From a virus (taxonomy: Duplodnaviria; Heunggongvirae; Uroviricota; Caudoviricetes): a stretch of 6,652 nucleotides of DNA. Of the stretch, positions 1-6,652 are shown piece by piece (the stretch's first letter is position 1; each line of letters opens with the position of its first letter). The notes below the pieces were generated by a model. That model worked only from the letters and a program-made list of their open reading frames with translations, was not told the DNA's origin and did no database searches. The translations under genes and the position numbers were made by a program. The DNA lies in IMG/VR virus record IMGVR_UViG_2671180921_000008, positions 1-6,652 of that record, one strand, 5' to 3'.

Positions 1-242
1 AATACGGTGCTCCGTTGACGCTTACGCCGAATAAGCTCATCTCTCATGCATTCCGGGCATTCGCTAGGTCTTGAGGCAAACTTAATTGGCCCAGTCGAGT
101 AACGGTTACGCTGCTCAAACTCACCATGTTTTTCACAGATGCCAGTGCCAATTTCTACAGCTGTATGCTCGATAGCAATTGGCGGAGAACTCAATTCTGC
201 AAGTTTTTTCTCAAGTTGGGAGATCTTTTCATCCAGCGTCAT
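1..242 (-). CDS. Hypothetical replication-module protein, N-terminal part only (runs off the window start); sits where lambda has P / the helicase loader
   Basis: Minus-strand ATG at 242..240, 2 nt after the O-like stop (TGA 247..245). Translation MTLDEKISQLEKKLAELSSPPIAIEHTAVEIGTGICEKHGEFEQRNRYSTGPIKFASRPSECPECMRDELIRRKRQRSTV. C-x2-H and C-P-E-C pairs suggest a zinc ribbon. It does not resemble lambda P; function is inferred from position only. Confidence 0.4.
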   Translation of the reverse strand, partial: MTLDEKISQLEKKLAELSSPPIAIEHTAVEIGTGICEKHGEFEQRNRYSTGPIKFASRPSECPECMRDELIRRKRQRSTV

Positions 243-244
243 GT

Positions 245-1120
245 TCACTCCTGCGCCCATGAAGGCATTTCAGTTTGTCCGTAATCTTTGGTGGCAAAGT
301 TTTCCTGCATAGCTCGATGCTGCGGCCTCGGTTGAGATTTCCCCTTTGGAGTCTTGGGCTCAAAAATCCCCTGCCAACCACTGGCGATGCTCTGGTTTAT
401 AATTTCTTCAGGTGTATATCCCTTCCCCAGACTTCTGCTTAGAACGTTGATAGCCTGAGTAACACTTTGCTTAGACTTGATCGACTTACCTATCTCCTTG
501 CGATATGTAACCCACGACAACCATGTTTCTGCTGATAACCAATCAGGCAACTCTGTTTCTAGCGGGTCGAACTTCTGAGAAACTTTTTTGGGGGATATAG
601 GGGGTTTATTAATATTTTCTTTTGTCTTTAAAGAATGTCTTTTGTGTGTCTCTAACTTCGAGACATTGAGTGTCTCTAATTTGGAGACATTTTTTGTCTC
701 TAACTTCGAGACAAAGTTGCTAACTTGGAGACACTTGCTGAATTGCCACGCAGATACCTCAATGTTTACACCGATTTGATTTCCATCCATAAACAGGCAA
801 TTCATTGAAATCAGTTCTTTTTTAGCCTTGTTAACATTCTGCCTTGACAGTCCTGTTAACTGAGCAATTTGCTCATCGGCTATTCGATCTGTTTTCTTAT
901 TGAATCCATATGTTTTCCGGACGTAGGCCAGCATAACTTTCAACTGGCGAGCGGTTAAATCGGCACTTGCGATAGCTTCCAGCAGCTCGTTAGCGAATCT
1001 GGTGTAACCATCATCGATATCAGCCACTCTTCGCTCCTGTTCAACAGGTTCACTCTTCGGCAGGTAAAATACTTCAGCCAGGCTCATTTCCAACCTCCGC
1101 ATCAAAGCATTGGGCTTCAA
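245..1120 (-). CDS. O: Replication initiator, lambda O family (N-terminal iteron-binding domain conserved, C-terminal domain divergent)
   Basis: 291-aa ORF. The segment QERRVADIDDGYTRFANELLEAIASADLTARQLKVMLAYVRKTYGFNKKTDRIADEQ aligns with the lambda O N-terminal domain as I recall it. The ori iterons lie inside the gene, as in lambda. The true start may be ATG 1087..1085, which has a GGAGG 7 nt upstream, rather than 1120. Confidence 0.85.
   Translation of the reverse strand: MKPNALMRRLEMSLAEVFYLPKSEPVEQERRVADIDDGYTRFANELLEAIASADLTARQLKVMLAYVRKTYGFNKKTDRIADEQIAQLTGLSRQNVNKAKKELISMNCLFMDGNQIGVNIEVSAWQFSKCLQVSNFVSKLETKNVSKLETLNVSKLETHKRHSLKTKENINKPPISPKKVSQKFDPLETELPDWLSAETWLSWVTYRKEIGKSIKSKQSVTQAINVLSRSLGKGYTPEEIINQSIASGWQGIFEPKTPKGKSQPRPQHRAMQENFATKDYGQTEMPSWAQE
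648..733. repeat. Replication origin iterons: four 18-bp direct repeats, each an internal inverted repeat (GTCTC...GAGAC), with a flanking AT-rich tract at about 590-647
   Basis: GTCTCTAACTTCGAGACA (648-665), GTCTCTAATTTGGAGACA (672-689), GTCTCTAACTTCGAGACA (696-713), GTTGCTAACTTGGAGACA (716-733), spaced about 24 bp. Inside the O reading frame they encode the repeated VSKLET peptide. The adjacent AT-rich stretch (tttattaatattttcttttgtctttaaagaatg) lies downstream in the O direction, matching lambda ori layout. Confidence 0.75.
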
Positions 1121-1718
1121 GAGACTTAACCATCACCACACTGCCATCTGTATTAATAACTATCGATGAGTTATATTTGCTTATCAGTTGCTTCGCGTAA
1201 TCAATTCCGGCGCGAATAAGGAAATTTTTCACCGCAGGAAGATGACCAACTACACTACCCAGACCTTGCTCTATAAGCTCCTCATTAAGATCAAGCTCAT
1301 TTTCATGGCGAAAAGAAATGAATGAGTCGTAAATTGCGTATTCTGCCGTCTCGCCATTTCTTTCAGGGCCAACCAGCGCCCTTATTTCATTTAGAGATTC
1401 AGAAAGATCATTATCTTCAAGCTTGAAAAACTCTCGATTATCACTAAGCCTCTCTTTTGCAAAGGCTTTATGAATGAGTTTTTCATCTGATGCGGGATTA
1501 TTTGAATGAAAGGCTGCTATCACCTTAAATGGCTTAGGAACGCCAGTAGAGGCTGAAATTTCTTTAGCCCTAACTTCTGGTGAATGCTTAGTCATCCCAA
1601 TCTTATAAATTCCTGGCATGCACTCATTCGAAAGCACATAAACAAAGCCATTTGATTTAAAATCATCTGGCACCTTCATGCTCTTCAGAACCTGGAATTT
1701 GTCATTTTCGTATGTCAT
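1074..1718 (-). CDS. T5orf172 / GIY-YIG-like domain protein (moron between cII/oop and O)
   Basis: 214-aa ORF with AGGAG 6 nt before the ATG. The N-terminal motif GFVYVLSNECMPGIYKIGMT...EVRAKE matches the T5orf172 (MUG113-type GIY-YIG-like) signature as I know it. The C-terminal ~90 aa are unassigned. Lambda has no gene at this position. Confidence 0.65.
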   Translation of the reverse strand: MTYENDKFQVLKSMKVPDDFKSNGFVYVLSNECMPGIYKIGMTKHSPEVRAKEISASTGVPKPFKVIAAFHSNNPASDEKLIHKAFAKERLSDNREFFKLEDNDLSESLNEIRALVGPERNGETAEYAIYDSFISFRHENELDLNEELIEQGLGSVVGHLPAVKNFLIRAGIDYAKQLISKYNSSIVINTDGSVVMVKSLEAQCFDAEVGNEPG

Positions 1719-1731
1719 AATTACTCCTGTG

Positions 1732-1804
1732 GATTGATCCAGTAATTCCCTCAGAATTGCATATCAATTTGCTTAAAATCCTCGGTGGCAGCCGGGGATT
1801 TTTT
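1732..1804 (+). ncRNA. oop: oop-like antisense RNA with intrinsic terminator, overlapping the 3' end of cII
   Basis: GATTGATCCAGTAAT...CCTCAGAA...CCTCGGTGGCAGCCGGGGATTTTTT resembles lambda oop RNA as I recall it. Terminator hairpin 1780-1797 (7 bp, two G-U pairs) followed by a T-run 1799-1804. It is antisense to the cII 3' end. The promoter lies around 1699-1725 (TTGTCA at 1699-1704; the -10 is ambiguous). Confidence 0.5.
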
Positions 1805-2047
1805 CTTTGTGATTTCATCAAGCGCATACTTAAAAGCCCTGCTAATCGGACTGATGTCTGATGCCATTCCGAAAGCACACAAGACCGAAGCAATAAATCT
1901 CCAGTCCGTTCTGCTTATCTTCGATTCATGACAGCCAATCATCTTTGCCAGACCGCGCTGGGTAAGCGTTGACAGGTTGATGAGTAAATCAGTTTCAGCG
2001 CGATCAACGTCGCGCTGTGATAGTTTGCTGTAACTTGTTTGTTCCAT
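1751..2047 (-). CDS. cII: cII-family transcriptional activator (not the lambda allele)
   Basis: 98-aa ORF directly downstream of cro and nutR. The C-terminus KKKSPAATEDFKQIDMQF matches lambda cII KKRPAATERSEQIQMEF, and the central region has the same helix-turn-helix-like layout. Most of the sequence diverges from lambda cII. Confidence 0.8.
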   Translation of the reverse strand: MEQTSYSKLSQRDVDRAETDLLINLSTLTQRGLAKMIGCHESKISRTDWRFIASVLCAFGMASDISPISRAFKYALDEITKKKSPAATEDFKQIDMQF

Positions 2048-2060
2048 TTCTTATGATTTC
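2025..2060 (+). promoter_or_regulatory. Putative pRE (cII-activated promoter) with a TTGC-N6-TTGT repeat
   Basis: TTGCTGTAACTTGT at 2025-2038 resembles the lambda cII site TTGC-N6-TTGC. It overlaps the cII start codon region on the opposite strand, as in lambda. The -10 is not clearly defined. Confidence 0.3.
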
Positions 2061-2074
2061 CAATAGTGAATATT

Positions 2075-2097
2075 ACGCATCTGTTGATGCGTTTTTT
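2075..2097 (+). terminator. Hairpin plus T6 run in the cro-cII intergenic region (intrinsic-terminator-like on plus strand; on the minus strand it lies in the tR1 zone)
   Basis: 7-bp perfect stem ACGCATC (2075-2081) / GATGCGT (2086-2092), 4-nt loop, T-run 2092-2097. Confidence 0.3.
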
Positions 2098-2099
2098 GT

Positions 2100-2137
2100 G
2101 GGGACGAATCATCCCCGACCTGATTGTTTAAAGAGCG
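2100..2137 (-). promoter_or_regulatory. nutR: nutR: boxA CGCTCTTTAA and boxB hairpin GGGGATGATTCGTCCCC
   Basis: On the minus strand: boxA consensus at 2137..2128, an 11-nt spacer, then boxB at 2116..2100. The identical boxB recurs in nutL downstream of pL. Confidence 0.65.
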
Positions 2138-2144
2138 GTGTTAC

Positions 2145-2354
<210 letters not shown>

Positions 2355-2369
2355 TTAGTACATGCAATC

Positions 2370-2439
2370 ATTATCACCGCTAGAGGTAAAATAGTCAACA
2401 CGCACGGTGTTAGATATTTATCCCTTGCGGTGATAGATT
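2370..2439. promoter_or_regulatory. Right operator OR1-OR2-OR3 with divergent promoters pR (toward cro) and pRM (toward cI)
   Basis: OR1 TATCACCGCTAGAGGTA (2372-2388), OR2 CAACACGCACGGTGTTA (2396-2412), OR3 TATCCCTTGCGGTGATA (2419-2435). pR on the minus strand: -35 TTGACT (2398..2393), -10 GATAAT (2375..2370). pRM on the plus strand: -35 TAGATA (2411-2416), 17-bp spacer, -10 TAGATT (2434-2439). The cI ATG at 2446 implies a leaderless transcript, as in lambda. Confidence 0.9.
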
Positions 2440-2442
2440 TAA

Positions 2443-3159
<717 letters not shown>

Positions 3160-3189
3160 AGCACATAGCATTCCTGGATAAAAATACAG

Positions 3190-3232
3190 ATTCCCTTTAT
3201 GGGAAATGAATCTATAATTCCCAAAGAGGGAA
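3190..3232 (+). promoter_or_regulatory. Putative promoter-operator of the toxin-antitoxin cassette: two TTCCC-N5-GGGAA palindromes flanking a TATAAT
   Basis: Palindrome 1 TTCCCTTTATGGGAA (3191-3205); perfect -10 TATAAT (3213-3218); palindrome 2 TTCCCAAAGAGGGAA (3218-3232). This is the usual autoregulated TA operator layout. The -35 is weak. Confidence 0.45.
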
Positions 3233-3244
3233 CTACATCGGATT

Positions 3245-3532
3245 ATGAAGGTCTTAAACGTAGAGAAGCTTCACAGTTTTAGCCGGAAACACAATCAGGC
3301 CAAGGGGGCTTTAGACTCTTGGTATGATGAAGTGAGAAGAGAAAACTGGAAAACGACTCAAGACATACGGAATAGATTTAATTCTGCCGACTTCCTTCCT
3401 GACAACAGGGTAATTTTTAATATAAAAGGCAATAACTATCGGCTCGTTGTCCAAGTTGTTTACCAAGCAGGAATTGTCATAGTTGAAAAAGTTGGAACTC
3501 ATGCAGAGTACGACAAGTGGAGACTTAAATGA
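3245..3532 (+). CDS. higB: HigB-family toxin (ribosome-dependent mRNA interferase, RelE/ParE superfamily)
   Basis: 95-aa ORF. FNIKGNNYRLVVQVVYQAGIVIVEKVGTHAEYD aligns with E. coli HigB (YgjN) FNVGGNELRVVAMVFFESQKCYIREVMTHKEYD along its full length, as I recall that sequence. The stop overlaps the next start (ATGA at 3529-3532). Confidence 0.8.
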   Translation: MKVLNVEKLHSFSRKHNQAKGALDSWYDEVRRENWKTTQDIRNRFNSADFLPDNRVIFNIKGNNYRLVVQVVYQAGIVIVEKVGTHAEYDKWRLK

Positions 3533-4185
3533 ATCGAACTAGCTGGCGCATCATTAAAAATAGTGAAGAGCATGCTGCAGCTATGGAAAGGCTCATTGAA
3601 CTTGCGTCTAGTGATTTACAACCTGGAACTGAAGATTTTGATGAGTTTGAACTACTAGGCTTGCTTATTGAGCACTATGAGTCACGCGAGTTCCCTATGG
3701 ACAAGCCAGACCCCATAGAAGCAATCAAGTTCCGCATGGATCAGCAAGGCCTCTCTTATGCCGACATGAAACAATACATTGGCTCAGCATCTAAAGTATC
3801 TGAGGTCTTAAATCGTAAGCGTCCATTAAGTCTTTCAATGATCCGTAGACTGCATGACGGGCTTGGCATTCCTGCAGATATCTTAATTCAAGATATGAGC
3901 GCAATTGAATGGAGTCTGGTTGACGCTGAGGAAGAAGAAACGACAATGACTAGCGTCATTGTTCAGTGTGAGTCAGCCGCCACATCATCTTCTCCTTATT
4001 ACGCTGAAAAGGCTACAGAATCTTACGTTTCAAAAATGTTGTTCAGCGCAGTAAGGGGTAACGGCGAATGCAAAGAAAAACGGAATGTTTTTTCTTTGAT
4101 AAGTAACTTGTCATCAAGTTTCACAGCAGCTAACAACCTGAATGACGAAATGACTCCTGACGGGAATTACTCATTAGTATCATGA
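3529..4185 (+). CDS. higA: HigA-like HTH antitoxin with a ~95-aa C-terminal extension (candidate chaperone-addiction region)
   Basis: 218-aa ORF. Residues ~1-123 align with E. coli HigA (YgjM): IEAIKFRMDQQGLSYADMKQYIGSASKVSEVLNRKRPLSLSMIRRLHDGLGIPADILIQ versus IAVIRTLMDQYGLTLSDLPEIGSKSMVSRVLSGKRKLTLEHAKKLATRFGISPALFID. Residues ~124-218 are an acidic, Ser-rich extension with aromatic patches (SPYYAEKATESYVSKMLF). Start and stop are both translationally coupled (ATGA) to the neighbours. Confidence 0.75.
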   Translation: MNRTSWRIIKNSEEHAAAMERLIELASSDLQPGTEDFDEFELLGLLIEHYESREFPMDKPDPIEAIKFRMDQQGLSYADMKQYIGSASKVSEVLNRKRPLSLSMIRRLHDGLGIPADILIQDMSAIEWSLVDAEEEETTMTSVIVQCESAATSSSPYYAEKATESYVSKMLFSAVRGNGECKEKRNVFSLISNLSSSFTAANNLNDEMTPDGNYSLVS

Positions 4186-4586
4186 AAATTGAACTCATTA
4201 GCAAAAAAGTTGAACGCTTGGTTATGAAGCAGCTAGAAGCTGATTCAGCGGCAAAAAAAAACCTGAACGCAACCGTTAAGCTGAATAATGAACTTTACAC
4301 TAATGTGAAGGATTCAAAGCTATTTAGAGTGAGATATTTTACCTCCATAACCATTGAAGGTAGACTAGAGATGGACATCACATACGACTTTGATTTTCGG
4401 TCAGAAGATGATTTTTCCCATGAAATGGCAAAATCACATGAGATAAGGTCCATTGCTCCCACTATGGCATATCCCTATATAAAAACATATGCCGAGCAAA
4501 TTATCCTCATGTCAAATCTTGGTAGGTTCAATCTTCCTTACTTTGATTTCTTGACCAATCCCATGGAAACGAACAGCAATAAGTGA
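4182..4586 (+). CDS. SecB-like chaperone (third component of a TAC-type module)
   Basis: 134-aa ORF. YPYIKTYAEQIILMSNLGRFNLPYFDFL aligns with E. coli SecB [31 protein letters not shown], and VKLNNELYTNVKDSKLFRVRYFTSITIEG with SecB [31 protein letters not shown], as I recall SecB. It is coupled to the antitoxin stop by ATGA and has no hydrophobic transmembrane stretch, so it is not RexB-like. Confidence 0.65.
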   Translation: MKIELISKKVERLVMKQLEADSAAKKNLNATVKLNNELYTNVKDSKLFRVRYFTSITIEGRLEMDITYDFDFRSEDDFSHEMAKSHEIRSIAPTMAYPYIKTYAEQIILMSNLGRFNLPYFDFLTNPMETNSNK

Positions 4587-4595
4587 AATCCCCCA

Positions 4596-4621
4596 CCCGG
4601 CCTCAGCGCCGGGTTTTCTTT
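4596..4621 (+). terminator. Rho-independent terminator closing the cI/cassette transcription unit
   Basis: Perfect 6-bp GC stem CCCGGC (4596-4601) / GCCGGG (4608-4613), 6-nt loop, then TTTTCTTT. It lies 10 nt after the last cassette stop, just upstream of OL. Confidence 0.7.
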
Positions 4622-4774
4622 GCCTCTCGATCCCCACACCTAATAACACCATAACCAATTGTATTTATTGAAAAATTTATAGATACAACTTGCTAAATAG
4701 TGCAATTCTGATCCCTCACCTACCAAACAATGCCCCCCCTGCAAAAAATAAATCCATATAAAAAACATACAGAT

Positions 4775-4837
4775 AACCATCTGCGGTGATAAATTATCTC
4801 TGGCGGTGTTGACACACATACCACTAGCGGTGATACT
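4775..4837 (+). promoter_or_regulatory. Left operator OL3-OL2-OL1 with promoter pL (rightward in this window)
   Basis: OL3 AACCATCTGCGGTGATA (4775-4791), OL2 TATCTCTGGCGGTGTTG (4795-4811), OL1 TACCACTAGCGGTGATA (4819-4835). -35 TTGACA (4809-4814), 17-bp spacer, -10 GATACT (4832-4837). Near-identical to the lambda pL/OL region as I recall it. Confidence 0.88.
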
Positions 4838-4882
4838 AAACACATCAGCAGGAAGCTGGAAGCCAAACGGAACAGATTGGCA

Positions 4883-4921
4883 GGCTCTTTAACATTGATG
4901 GAATGGGGATGATTCGTCCCC
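4883..4921 (+). promoter_or_regulatory. nutL: nutL: boxA GGCTCTTTAA and boxB hairpin GGGGATGATTCGTCCCC
   Basis: boxA at 4883-4892, 12-nt spacer, boxB at 4905-4921 (GGGGA/TCCCC stem). boxB is identical to nutR on the other strand and lies about 45-80 nt downstream of the pL start. Confidence 0.65.
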
Positions 4922-5076
4922 ACCAAAGAGAGGTTGGCTTTGGGATTTGATGAATGCGCAGGTCGATGCGCTACCACTTAGCGGTGAGCACCTGCATTTT
5001 GGGCAGGATGGATAGCCGCAATAAGGGGATCGACACATGACATCAAATCACCAAAGTCAATCATCGGAGGTATCCA

Positions 5077-5283
5077 GTGAAAGCAAGAGAGATTCGCAAA
5101 CTCGAACGCGCTCGTAAGCACAAAGAGGCGACAGCAAAACGTAAAAATATTGACCGTGTTTCAATGGTGGTTTCGCTAGCAGGAGCGAATAGGAAGAAGG
5201 TTGAATGTGGTTCGTGCTGCCTGCCAAACGTAGCCATTTACGCGGCAGGCTACCGGAAATCAAAACAACTGACAGCAAGATGA
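5077..5283 (+). CDS. N: N-like transcription antiterminator, N-terminal arginine-rich part; apparently truncated (see the out-of-frame C-terminal remnant)
   Basis: GTG start at 5077 with GGAGG 6 nt upstream. N-terminus MKAREIRKLERARKHKEATAKRKNIDR is an arginine/lysine-rich motif typical of N-family boxB-binding peptides. First gene after pL-nutL. Ends at TGA 5281-5283 after 68 codons. Confidence 0.6.
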   Translation: MKAREIRKLERARKHKEATAKRKNIDRVSMVVSLAGANRKKVECGSCCLPNVAIYAAGYRKSKQLTAR

Positions 5284-5285
5284 CT

Positions 5286-5333
5286 TGTGTTGGTCGCCAG
5301 AAAATGAAATTAGGCAGCAAACCACTTATTTGA
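5286..5333 (+). pseudogene. N: Out-of-frame 3' segment encoding a lambda-N-like C-terminus (CVGRQKMKLGSKPLI-stop)
   Basis: In the frame offset by 2 nt from the N ORF, 5286-5330 reads CVGRQKMKLGSKPLI then TGA. Lambda N ends ...TCSGRQKIKGKSIPLI as I recall it. This frame is closed upstream by TGA at 5202-5204. Confidence 0.5.
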
Positions 5334-5341
5334 GGTGATAT

Positions 5342-5428
5342 ATGGAAGAAGAATTTGAAGAGTTCGAAGAGCATCCTCAGGATGTGATGGAACAATACCA
5401 GGACTACCCTTATGACTACGACTATTGA
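5342..5428 (+). CDS. Small acidic 28-aa ORF (MEEEFEEFEEHPQDVMEQYQDYPYDYDY), possibly the lambda orf28 equivalent
   Basis: ATG at 5342 with GAGGTGA 4-5 nt upstream. It overlaps the start of the next ORF. Below the length cutoff of the ORF track. Function unknown. Confidence 0.4.
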   Translation: MEEEFEEFEEHPQDVMEQYQDYPYDYDY

Positions 5429-5612
5429 TAAGAATCAATGGTGTGGACAATTCAAGCGATGCAATGGATGCAAGCTGCAATCGGAATGCATGGTTAAGCC
5501 TGAAGAAATGTTTCCTGTAATGGAAGATGGGAAATATGTCGATAAATGGGCAATACGAACGACGGCAATGATTGCCAGAGAACTTGGTAAACAGAACAAC
5601 AAGGCTGCCTGA
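5412..5612 (+). CDS. ral: Small Cys-rich protein, 66 aa; tentatively Ral-like (restriction alleviation) by length and position
   Basis: 66-aa ORF MTTTIDKNQWCGQFKRCNGCKLQSECMV... with C-x5-C-x2-C-x5-C spacing. Same length and early-left-operon position as lambda Ral. I cannot verify sequence identity from memory with certainty. Confidence 0.45.
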   Translation: MTTTIDKNQWCGQFKRCNGCKLQSECMVKPEEMFPVMEDGKYVDKWAIRTTAMIARELGKQNNKAA

Positions 5613-5639
5613 TGGTGGCCTTTATTTTTAAGGAGCTAT

Positions 5640-5882
5640 ATGAAAATTAAAACTATGGCAGCAAGCCCATTAAGCGGTCGTATTTTTCAAGGAACATTAA
5701 ACACTGAAAAAGGAATGTGGGTAGGAAAGAAAGAAGATGTCACCGAACAAGCGATTAAGGCAGTAACTGAACACCTGATGATAAAAGACCGGAAATATGC
5801 ATACGAAACGAATGATGGCAAATGGGTGATAATAATGCATCAACTGGTTGATGAATTACCAGAAGAGTTTATTGCTGATTAA
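5640..5882 (+). CDS. Hypothetical protein, 80 aa
   Basis: ATG at 5640 with AGGAG 4 nt upstream. No motif recognised. Confidence 0.5.
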   Translation: MKIKTMAASPLSGRIFQGTLNTEKGMWVGKKEDVTEQAIKAVTEHLMIKDRKYAYETNDGKWVIIMHQLVDELPEEFIAD

Positions 5883-6008
5883 AATTATTTTGGCATAAAC
5901 AACAGAATAAACACTGCACTGTGTATTCATTCCAACGAGTGAATACACGGAGCAATGTCGCTCGTAACTAAACAGGAGCCGACTTGTTCTGATTATTGGA
6001 AATCTTCT

Positions 6009-6036
6009 TTGCCCTCTAATGTGAGGGCGATTTTTA
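6009..6036 (+). terminator. Rho-independent terminator (tL-type, expected to be read through under N antitermination)
   Basis: Stem GCCCTC (6011-6016) / GAGGGC (6023-6028), extendable by two pairs, 6-nt loop, T-run 6031-6035. Confidence 0.55.
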
Positions 6037-6055
6037 TCTATGAGGATATGAATAG

Positions 6056-6211
6056 ATGTCAAACATCAAAAAATACATCATTGATTACGACTGGAAAGCA
6101 TCAATAGAAATTGAAATTGACCATGACGTAATGATAGAGGAAAAACTTCACCAGATTAATAATTCTGGTCAGACTCTGAATACCGACTCAATAAACACGG
6201 CTCTGTATTAA
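6056..6211 (+). CDS. Hypothetical protein, 51 aa (possibly the 5' half of a frameshift-split gene)
   Basis: ATG at 6056 with GAGGA 9 nt upstream. MSNIKKYIIDYDWKASIEIEIDHDVMIEEKLHQINNSGQTLNTDSINTALY. Below the ORF-track cutoff. Confidence 0.35.
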   Translation: MSNIKKYIIDYDWKASIEIEIDHDVMIEEKLHQINNSGQTLNTDSINTALY

Positions 6212-6225
6212 ATGCTGTATTAATC

Positions 6226-6423
6226 ATGCTGGAGCAACATGCTCTGCTTATAGCAATTTCAAGCGACTTAAATGCATATGGTGTTGTGTGTGAGTTCGAC
6301 TGGAATGATGGAAATGGTCAGGAAGGATGGCCTCCAATGGATGGTAGTGAAGGAATAAGAATTACCGATATCGATACATCAGGAATATTTGATTCAGATG
6401 ATATGACTATCAAGGCCGCCTGA
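6226..6423 (+). CDS. Hypothetical acidic protein, 65 aa (possibly the 3' half of a split gene)
   Basis: ORF from the track. Its frame is already open from 6163, overlapping the 3' end of the preceding ORF in a different frame. Confidence 0.4.
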   Translation: MLEQHALLIAISSDLNAYGVVCEFDWNDGNGQEGWPPMDGSEGIRITDIDTSGIFDSDDMTIKAA

Positions 6424-6448
6424 GCGCGGCGTTACCGCATACCAATTA

Positions 6449-6469
6449 CGCTTCACTCGAGGCGTTTTT
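6449..6469 (+). terminator. Weak terminator-like hairpin with T5 run upstream of cIII
   Basis: Stem CGCTTC (6449-6454) / GAGGCG (6459-6464) with one G-U pair, 4-nt loop, T-run 6465-6469. Confidence 0.3.
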
Positions 6470-6495
6470 CGTTATGTATAAATAAGGAGCACACC

Positions 6496-6636
6496 CTGCA
6501 ATATGCCATTGCAGGGTGGCCTGTTGCTGGCTGCCCTTCCGAATCTTTACTTGAACGAATCACCCGTAAATTACGTGACGGATGGAAACGCCTTATCGAC
6601 ATACTTAATCAGCCAGGAGTTCCCAAAAATGGATAA
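6496..6636 (+). CDS. cIII: cIII-like ORF (lambda cIII homolog) lacking an ATG at the expected start (CTG) and ending at a TAA earlier than I recall for lambda
   Basis: Frame reads (L)QYAIAGWPVAGCPSESLLERITRKLRDGWKRLIDILNQPGVPKNG then TAA. This matches lambda cIII MQYAIAGWPVAGCPSESLLERITRKLRDGWKRLIDILNQPGVPKNG... as I recall it. AAGGAG (6484-6489) sits 6 nt before the CTG at 6496. The TAA at 6634-6636 coincides with codon 3 of the overlapping kil-like frame. Confidence 0.5.
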   Translation: MQYAIAGWPVAGCPSESLLERITRKLRDGWKRLIDILNQPGVPKNG

Positions 6637-6652
6637 AACACTTATGGCTATC
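6629..6652 (+). CDS. kil: kil-like ORF, first 8 codons only (MDKTLMAI...), overlapping the cIII 3' end
   Basis: ATG at 6629 with AGGAG 9 nt upstream. The N-terminus resembles lambda Kil (MDQTLMAI...) as I recall it, and lambda kil overlaps cIII in the same way. It runs off the window end. Confidence 0.35.

Follow-up and report, generated by a model that had tools for sequence, protein, structure and literature searches.

Homing endonuclease genes with a T5orf172 domain have been reported in phages near essential replication genes, at the boundaries of genetic exchange (PMC10448857), and the domain has been shown to be a nuclease in Odn of the vibriophage ICP1 (E180A; PMC8263062) and in SNIPE, also named PD-Lambda-1 (E414A; PMC13190303). 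Here we describe a gene with the same pattern in a 6,652-nucleotide (nt) stretch of a tailed phage (Caudoviricetes; IMG/VR record IMGVR_UViG_2671180921_000008, positions 1 to 6,652), referred to below as the window, which covers the immunity and replication region of a lambdoid phage in reverse orientation. The gene, at 1074..1718 on the minus strand, encodes 214 amino acids (aa) and lies between cII and the replication initiator gene O. The early-right operon of lambda is among the best understood stretches of DNA, yet the replication module of many lambda-like prophages of the Enterobacterales is headed by this nuclease gene, which is strongly conserved and so far uncharacterised. Phage T5orf172/GIY-YIG nuclease genes as such are known; what is new is the acidic orphan domain of the product and its strictly conserved position ahead of diverse initiators, and a literature search found no paper on this lambdoid family, nor any that places a GIY-YIG gene between cII and O in lambdoid phages.

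The T5orf172 homing endonuclease genes of ICP1, including that for Odn (Gp88), encode the same Pfam nuclease domain, with the Tyr, Tyr, Arg and Glu residues kept, and are likewise free-standing, variable among close relatives and adjacent to genes essential for replication, at points where mosaic exchange has a boundary (PMC10448857, PMC8263062). They differ in that the nuclease domain is N-terminal here, and that an acidic orphan domain stands where they have a CapR, DUF723 or DUF4397 zinc finger or a RepA_N domain, none of which was detected with Pfam. The present gene moreover belongs to temperate lambdoid phages and has a fixed position after the cII/oop linker. I-TevI and the T4 Seg proteins are also organised with the GIY-YIG catalytic part first, over about 95 aa, and a second domain of comparable length after it, but no significant alignment with them was obtained (hhalign probability below 1%). 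The C-terminal domain here is not composed of a linker, a zinc finger and a helix-turn-helix (HTH), and the protein is acidic. SNIPE shares the T5orf172/GIY-YIG nuclease domain, matched through PADLOC and there a proven DNA-cutting module; it is, however, host-encoded, membrane-anchored and around 490 aa long, with a DUF4041 domain and a C-terminal nuclease, all features missing from the 214-aa protein (PMC13190303). The PADLOC candidate system PDC-S57 is closer in layout, as it consists of one gene whose product, about 212-245 aa long, begins with a T5orf172 domain, but its C-terminal half is unmatched, such that the similarity is not full length, and the gene described here lies in a repressed early phage operon.

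A nuclease domain joined to an acidic orphan domain

By profile, structural model and substitution pattern, positions 1074-1718 encode an intact, selected protein of two domains, predicted to be a T5orf172-type GIY-YIG nuclease domain at the N terminus and an acidic orphan domain at the C terminus. The coding sequence (CDS), taken from the list of open reading frames (ORFs) and the Pfam matches, runs from an ATG at 1718-1716 to a TGA at 1076-1074. An earlier interpretation made without database searches, here called the sequence-only reading, had assigned the product to the T5orf172/GIY-YIG group, and had noted that the lack of a profile match would count against this. Judged by the curated gathering thresholds, the N-terminal domain (aa 24-112; 1383..1649, minus strand) belongs both to Pfam T5orf172 (PF10544; E = 2.3e-15, 57.4 bits against a cut-off of 20, aa 24-112) and to MUG113 (PF13455; E = 4.3e-16, 59.7 bits against a cut-off of 22.3, aa 38-111), and both domains are also precomputed in all 39 representatives of the family.

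Residues G24, Y27, Y38, K39, G41, T43, R50, E53, E79, H83, R95, E96, F97 and F98 are invariant across the family. These include the GIY/YIG/Arg/Glu set (Y27, Y38, R50, E79 and E96), unchanged in 39 representatives that are 34-83% identical; the residues for which the sequence-only reading had proposed a search are consequently present, in a model with the GIY-YIG fold. The putative catalytic Glu can be assigned by motif resemblance only, R-E96-F-F resembling the R-E75-N-F-W of I-TevI, and a residue-by-residue mapping onto I-TevI with hhalign was not significant (probability below 1%). An AlphaFold2 model built on 39 homologues has a predicted local distance difference test (pLDDT) score of 84.7, and its fold, with the beta-beta-alpha core, matches GIY-YIG nucleases only, the best structural neighbours being the structure-specific nucleases Slx1 and HIGLE. 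A Foldseek search of the PDB returned nothing significant, and the family profile matched no PDB chain sequence at E<=1.

Other resources describe the protein less specifically. It falls into two PHROGs families without assigned function and matches no NCBIfam model; in PADLOC, it matches PDC-S57 (E = 6e-29) at profile positions 3-93 of 212, corresponding to the nuclease domain only, and the nuclease domain of PD-Lambda-1 (E = 8e-12) at positions 355-449 of 496. RefSeq genomes of Escherichia coli name it 'GIY-YIG nuclease family protein', and the cultured BASEL phage Bas106 has a 99.5% identical CDS annotated as 'hypothetical protein'. The reading frame is not a chance ORF, since it has 52 database homologues, a ratio of non-synonymous to synonymous substitution rates (dN/dS) of 0.08-0.3 in both halves and a model pLDDT of 84.7.

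The C-terminal part, which the sequence-only reading had left unassigned, remains so: neither Pfam nor NCBIfam has a match to the last 100 aa or thereabouts. It is predicted to form a small alpha/beta fold (aa 117-214; 1077..1370, minus strand), with a pLDDT of 82.8 when modelled alone, and has no structural fold match. Residues 113-214 carry a net charge of -8, and the whole family is acidic, with isoelectric points (pI) of 4.5-5.4. Searched on its own against 1.84 billion representatives, the domain recovered its own family only; two large repeat proteins with CARDB and Ig repeats also scored, and were discarded as spurious. Mimicry of an initiator in the manner of Odn was considered and rejected, as profiles of the O-type and 'MARSRNIKPGFF'-type initiators gave hhalign probabilities of 1% or less. 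The dN/dS values above were obtained against diverged relatives, and both domains are under purifying selection.

In 37 of 73 distinct relatives the protein ends in GIYGP...F-COOH, and some of the tails (LPPVDEPIPF, DDSDIPF, DFDDAPF) resemble the tip of E. coli SSB, PPMDFDDDIPF, which suggests possible docking onto proteins that interact with SSB. No such tail is present in the window protein or in its 214-aa subfamily. Examples that bear it are the proteins P0031, P0034, P0035, P0039 and P0040 and those of loci L011, L023, L024, L071 and L080-L083.

The cassette replaces the start of O

In lambda, cII (38360-38653) is followed directly by O at 38686, as the sequence-only reading had stated, and relative to that arrangement the 214-aa gene is indeed an additional gene between the two. 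The idea of an insertion holds in this respect but not as to its form, since the gene is part of a 670-base-pair (bp) cassette (1043..1712) that replaces 42 bp and rebuilds the 5' end of O. This was seen in a blastn comparison of the window with an 'empty' locus, L002, in which the 42 bp at 3044-3085 are unmatched by the window. The E. coli prophage EC2001 lacks the ORF but has the same O allele, and its flanks align with window positions 26-1042 (98.8%) and 1713-2072 (95.8%). The 42 bp correspond to codons 3-16 of a lambda-type O (MTNTAKILNFGRGNF...) and are identical in lambda itself; by alignment and translation, the cassette supplies in their place a variant O 5' end encoding MSLAEVFYLPKSEPV... 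(1043..1087, minus strand).

Upstream of the cassette lies the conserved lambdoid linker AATTACTGGATCAATCCACAGGAGTAATT followed by ATGACA (1713..1748, minus strand), recognised by alignment with lambda and with the empty allele. It contains the original ribosome-binding site of O, AGGAG at 1728-1724, and the original start codon, both of which now serve the nuclease gene; the latter therefore begins on the ancestral ATGACA start of O. In exchange, O has received from the cassette a new ribosome-binding site, a new start at 1087 and 15 new codons, and its N terminus has diverged. The new site reads GGAGG (1094..1098, minus strand) and lies within the nuclease CDS, at its 3' end, 6 nt upstream of the ATG. 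Because RefSeq and Bas106 both start O at the ATG at 1087, the nuclease stop overlaps O by 14 nt, in agreement with the overlap reported in the sequence-only reading. That reading had also allowed that the ORF might prove to be an extended O N terminus or a conserved replication gene. Yet it is in a different frame from O, 27-28 genomes have the O allele without it, and it is not a core replication gene; on these alignments the cassette is more than a simple insertion and does not extend O.

The cassette has no anomalous composition, its GC content of around 40-43% being like that of its neighbours. On the plus strand of the linker, the -10 element of the oop promoter, CATAAT (1716-1721), is retained, and across window positions 1693-1721 the lambda-type -35 element TTGAGT becomes TGGAAT in the cassette, at the same 17-nt spacing. 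Owing to this replacement, oop transcription may be weaker in phages that carry the cassette.

Distribution in E. coli

Among 5,426 complete E. coli genomes, the nuclease gene was found in 19. Each copy is complete and shares at least 99.2% identity with the others, and a search for partial copies at around 65% identity or more found none. The body of the same O allele occurs in 46-47 genomes, hence about 27 carry it without the cassette. The variant O 5' end, searched for as a 52-bp stretch, is confined to the same 19 genomes as the nuclease gene (19/19). The lambda-type empty junction, of 71 bp, is present at 1,801 places in 1,345 genomes. Carriers have at least six different immunity regions, that of the window included, and the upstream boundary of homology varies among them, falling at 1743, 1812 or 2072. 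Haplotypes of O with and without the cassette are intermixed, and no cassette-specific tract of single-nucleotide polymorphisms was found in O beyond 1042. These observations, drawn from genome comparison, firmly support the view that the nuclease gene is an optional one, carried by a mobile cassette that heads the replication module.

A further 13 near-identical copies are present in IMG/VR. Twenty near-identical copies have 15 synonymous and 13 non-synonymous variable codons, with no frameshift. One candidate for a decayed copy, P0032, in which the nuclease C terminus is fused to O, was set aside: its contig is error-rich, with many split genes, and the fusion is most likely an assembly error.

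A conserved slot ahead of diverse initiators

Homologues of 214-238 aa, with identities down to about 35%, are found in prophages of Klebsiella, Pantoea, Enterobacter, Cronobacter, Pectobacterium, Mixta, Dryocola, Salmonella and Proteus. In a set of 94 loci with a relative of 195-250 aa, a downstream ORF could be called in 88; in all 88 the relative occupies the same boundary between modules, immediately ahead of the initiator, and in 84 the downstream ORF starts between -30 and +12 nt from the nuclease stop. This fixed position ahead of many unrelated replication initiators goes beyond anything in the sequence-only reading. The downstream proteins form 10 clusters. Representatives of the eight substantive ones were scanned, all of which matched families of replication initiators or replisome organisers; the remaining two are singletons that represent truncated versions of types already scanned. 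The initiators belong to at least six families, among them several O types, a 'MARSRNIKPGFF' type (PHROG 17247/16167) and an HTH_36/DnaD-like type, and the best match of one cluster is annotated as a DnaD-like helicase loader. The lambdoid linker ACTGGATCAATTCACAGGAGTAATT is found within the 30 nt upstream of the gene at 53 of the 94 loci, with the same linker preceding relatives in phages of Klebsiella, Pantoea, Enterobacter and Proteus.

Which nuclease subfamily occurs at a locus is independent of the initiator family found there. Co-variation of the two was rejected on the evidence of pairs such as L056 and L059, whose nucleases are 76% identical and whose initiators are unrelated, and of initiators 80-87% identical that are paired with nucleases just 35-41% identical.

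The slot after the linker is empty in lambda, and can hold a different gene. In Stx2 phage 1717 (L134:2345-2506) an identical linker and ATGACA are followed by a 53-aa ORF, described in the record as similar to HK97 gp53 and Sf6 gene 42, which overlaps the start of the initiator by the same 14 nt; unlike the nuclease, it is small and basic, is unrelated in sequence and has no nuclease domain. In a Klebsiella aerogenes prophage (L004:5621-5700), the nuclease gene has been inserted without replacing the 5' end of O. An in-frame ATG lies upstream of the called O start there, overlapping the last nuclease codons, and would give O a lambda-like N terminus (MGGEMNTAEILNFPG...), so the called start may be too far downstream. 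At L072:4661-5683, the 'MARSRNIKPGFF'-type initiator just downstream of the nuclease relative is about 50 aa longer than its kin. PHROG 8130, a family without assigned function whose profile has 434 positions, matches an initiator N terminus (11-102) and the T5orf172 domain (181-257), and looks like an initiator-nuclease chimera of the Odn kind among related phages.

Possible functions of the nuclease

A promoter scan identified a pR-like promoter, TTGACT-17-GATAAT (2370..2398, minus strand), from which cro, cII, the nuclease gene and O would be transcribed. A consensus scan found no promoter-like site between this (2398-2370) and the nuclease gene, which uses the ribosome-binding site of O; early expression from pR, as had been proposed from the sequence, fits this anatomy. 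The same anatomy implies that the protein would be made early along with cII and O, with its translation coupled to that of O, that it would be silent in a lysogen, and that it would have to spare both the host chromosome and its own genome. Being co-transcribed with cII before the decision between lysis and lysogeny, it cannot be an indiscriminate DNase, and the data favour a specific or protein-targeted nuclease rather than a general host-takeover DNase.

The interpretation we prefer, with a probability of roughly 0.35, is that of a mobile conflict nuclease similar to a homing endonuclease, made early from pR and cutting the DNA of rival lambdoid phages that lack the cassette. Were a phage with the cassette to share a cell with a lambdoid genome without it, the enzyme would cut the rival close to where its replication module begins, most probably at the highly conserved linker and O 5' end, which in cassette phages is destroyed by the cassette itself. 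Recombinational repair would then either copy the cassette across or exclude the markers of the rival, and the nuclease gene would thereby form a boundary of genetic exchange. Support for this comes from the extreme conservation of the replaced sequence, evident in the number of genomes with the empty junction; from the Pfam nuclease matches and the invariant Tyr-Tyr-Arg-Glu set; from the presence and absence of the gene on one O allele, in at least six immunity backgrounds and with variable upstream boundaries; from the module boundary kept by all 88 relatives independently of initiator type; and from the purifying selection on both domains. The locus also has the presence/absence polymorphism of a homing gene, with flanks 96-99% identical to those of the empty allele and an O that is rebuilt with a new ribosome-binding site and start.

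A number of observations weigh against such a role. Pfam detected no zinc finger, HTH or NUMOD, and the C-terminal domain has no fold match, leaving the protein without a recognised DNA-binding module. GIY-YIG homing endonucleases are typically basic, and the acidity of this family is atypical of them. With about 20 copies against 1,801 places that hold the putative target, the cassette is rare; in E. coli it is limited to one O allele, and neither degraded copies (19/19 are intact) nor a co-conversion tract in O beyond 1042 were found. Module shuffling at the linker, without homing, could give the same pattern, a view that the presence of other small genes in the slot, such as the 53-aa ORF of Stx2 phage 1717, also fits. 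In addition, the SSB-tip-like tail in half of the relatives suggests protein recruitment over recognition of a DNA sequence, and cleavage by the window protein is itself a prediction.

The main alternative, a tentative one to which we attach some credence, is an accessory nuclease of replication or recombination that is recruited by proteins and processes DNA structures rather than sequences, docking onto fork or repair proteins through the acidic C-terminal domain, or in relatives through the SSB-tip-like tail. It might nick or cleave forks or intermediates in phage replication, restart or the switch to rolling-circle replication. This would explain co-expression and translational coupling with the initiator, and is consistent with a position directly upstream of it, usually adjoining or overlapping, across at least six initiator families, as well as with the lack of a DNA-binding domain in an acidic family, the tails of 37 of the 73 distinct relatives, the structure-specific nature of Slx1 and HIGLE, and strong purifying selection with no decayed copies. 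On the other hand, the gene is optional, being absent from lambda and from about 27 genomes in which the same O allele works; neither the window protein nor its subfamily has an SSB-like tail; and independent assortment speaks against partnership with any specific initiator. The known T5orf172 proteins, furthermore, are conflict nucleases, none of which is known to have such a role (PMC8263062, PMC13190303, PMC10448857). A related proposal, about which we are rather more doubtful, is that of an undescribed class of accessory nucleases at the heads of lambdoid replication modules, which would find its substrate via proteins instead of DNA sequence, docked on the fork or repair machinery by the orphan acidic domain and, in many relatives, by the SSB-tip mimic, and cut rival replicons or host forks.

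It appears decidedly questionable whether the enzyme acts against parasites or host defences as Odn does, by destroying the DNA of a satellite, plasmid or defence element early in infection. It has its nuclease domain in common with Odn, a phage nuclease that cuts the origin of a satellite (PMC8263062), its expression is expected to be early, the gene is sporadic and accessory, and PHROG 8130 suggests that Odn-like chimeras exist among related phages; but the C-terminal domain resembles neither initiators (hhalign probability of 1% or less) nor any DNA-binding fold, no target can be named, and the position of the gene is fixed whatever the rest of the genome. A function in lysogens, cutting incoming phage DNA for defence or superinfection exclusion after the fashion of PDC-S57 or SNIPE, is unlikely, and we give it very little weight. 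Although PADLOC matches both systems and the prophage has a defence-like cluster of three genes in its rex slot, those matches are limited to the nuclease domain, there is no transmembrane segment or DUF4041, and the literature search found no paper on PDC-S57. A gene in the cI-repressed pR operon, for which the scan found no promoter of its own, should moreover be silent in a lysogen.

The consequences would differ. A nuclease of homing type, or one that cuts rivals, would provide a concrete mechanism for the sharp cII/O mosaic boundary of lambdoid phages, and would extend to temperate coliphages the idea, drawn from lytic vibriophages, that boundaries of exchange are occupied by nuclease genes. 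A protein-recruited fork nuclease would be a new accessory function in lambdoid replication, one that the SSB-tip mimicry of the relatives makes directly testable, and an undescribed protein-guided class would amount to a replication-coupled weapon or helper unaccounted for in lambda biology. The cultivable phage Bas106, with its 99.5% identical copy, makes the system tractable.

The surrounding early region

The remainder of the window follows the lambda-like plan. O (245..1087, minus strand) encodes a replication initiator of 280 aa in 843 nt, the length annotated in both Bas106 and RefSeq, and matches Pfam Phage_rep_O (E = 4e-36). Within it, a repeat search revealed four copies of the ori iteron TGTCTCTAAyTTsGAGACA at 24-nt spacing (642..736), a position matching that of the lambda ori iterons annotated inside O. 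Iteron copy number differs among otherwise near-identical O alleles, with a 48-nt deletion in L045 and expansions of 24 or 48 nt in L042, L049 and L132. Upstream of the nuclease gene are cII (1751..2047, minus strand; Pfam Phage_CII, E = 5e-32) and cro (2145..2345, minus strand), and beyond them a lambda-like cI (2446..3159, plus strand).

A terminator scan marked a hairpin at 1775..1802 on the plus strand, in a region that aligns with the 3' end of lambda cII and the cII-O spacer; from textbook knowledge of lambda, we take this to be the terminator of an oop-like antisense RNA. Rfam gave no match to the oop family in the window, the sole match being Lambda_thermo, the cIII thermoregulator element, at 6483-6541 on the plus strand (81 bits), which marks the cIII 5' region. 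In no complete E. coli genome of the collection is over 65% of the window found at a single place, and this mosaic of modules is accordingly either rare or unsampled.

The slot occupied by rexAB beside cI holds three overlapping genes in the window (3245-4586, plus strand). They encode a HigB-like toxin matching PD-Lambda-2_A (E = 1e-43), a 218-aa HTH protein matching PD-Lambda-2_B (E = 3e-50) over the first 125 of 402 profile positions only, and a 134-aa protein matching PD-T4-9_C (E = 3e-11). By these profile matches the trio looks like a hybrid, and is a candidate defence or toxin-antitoxin system.

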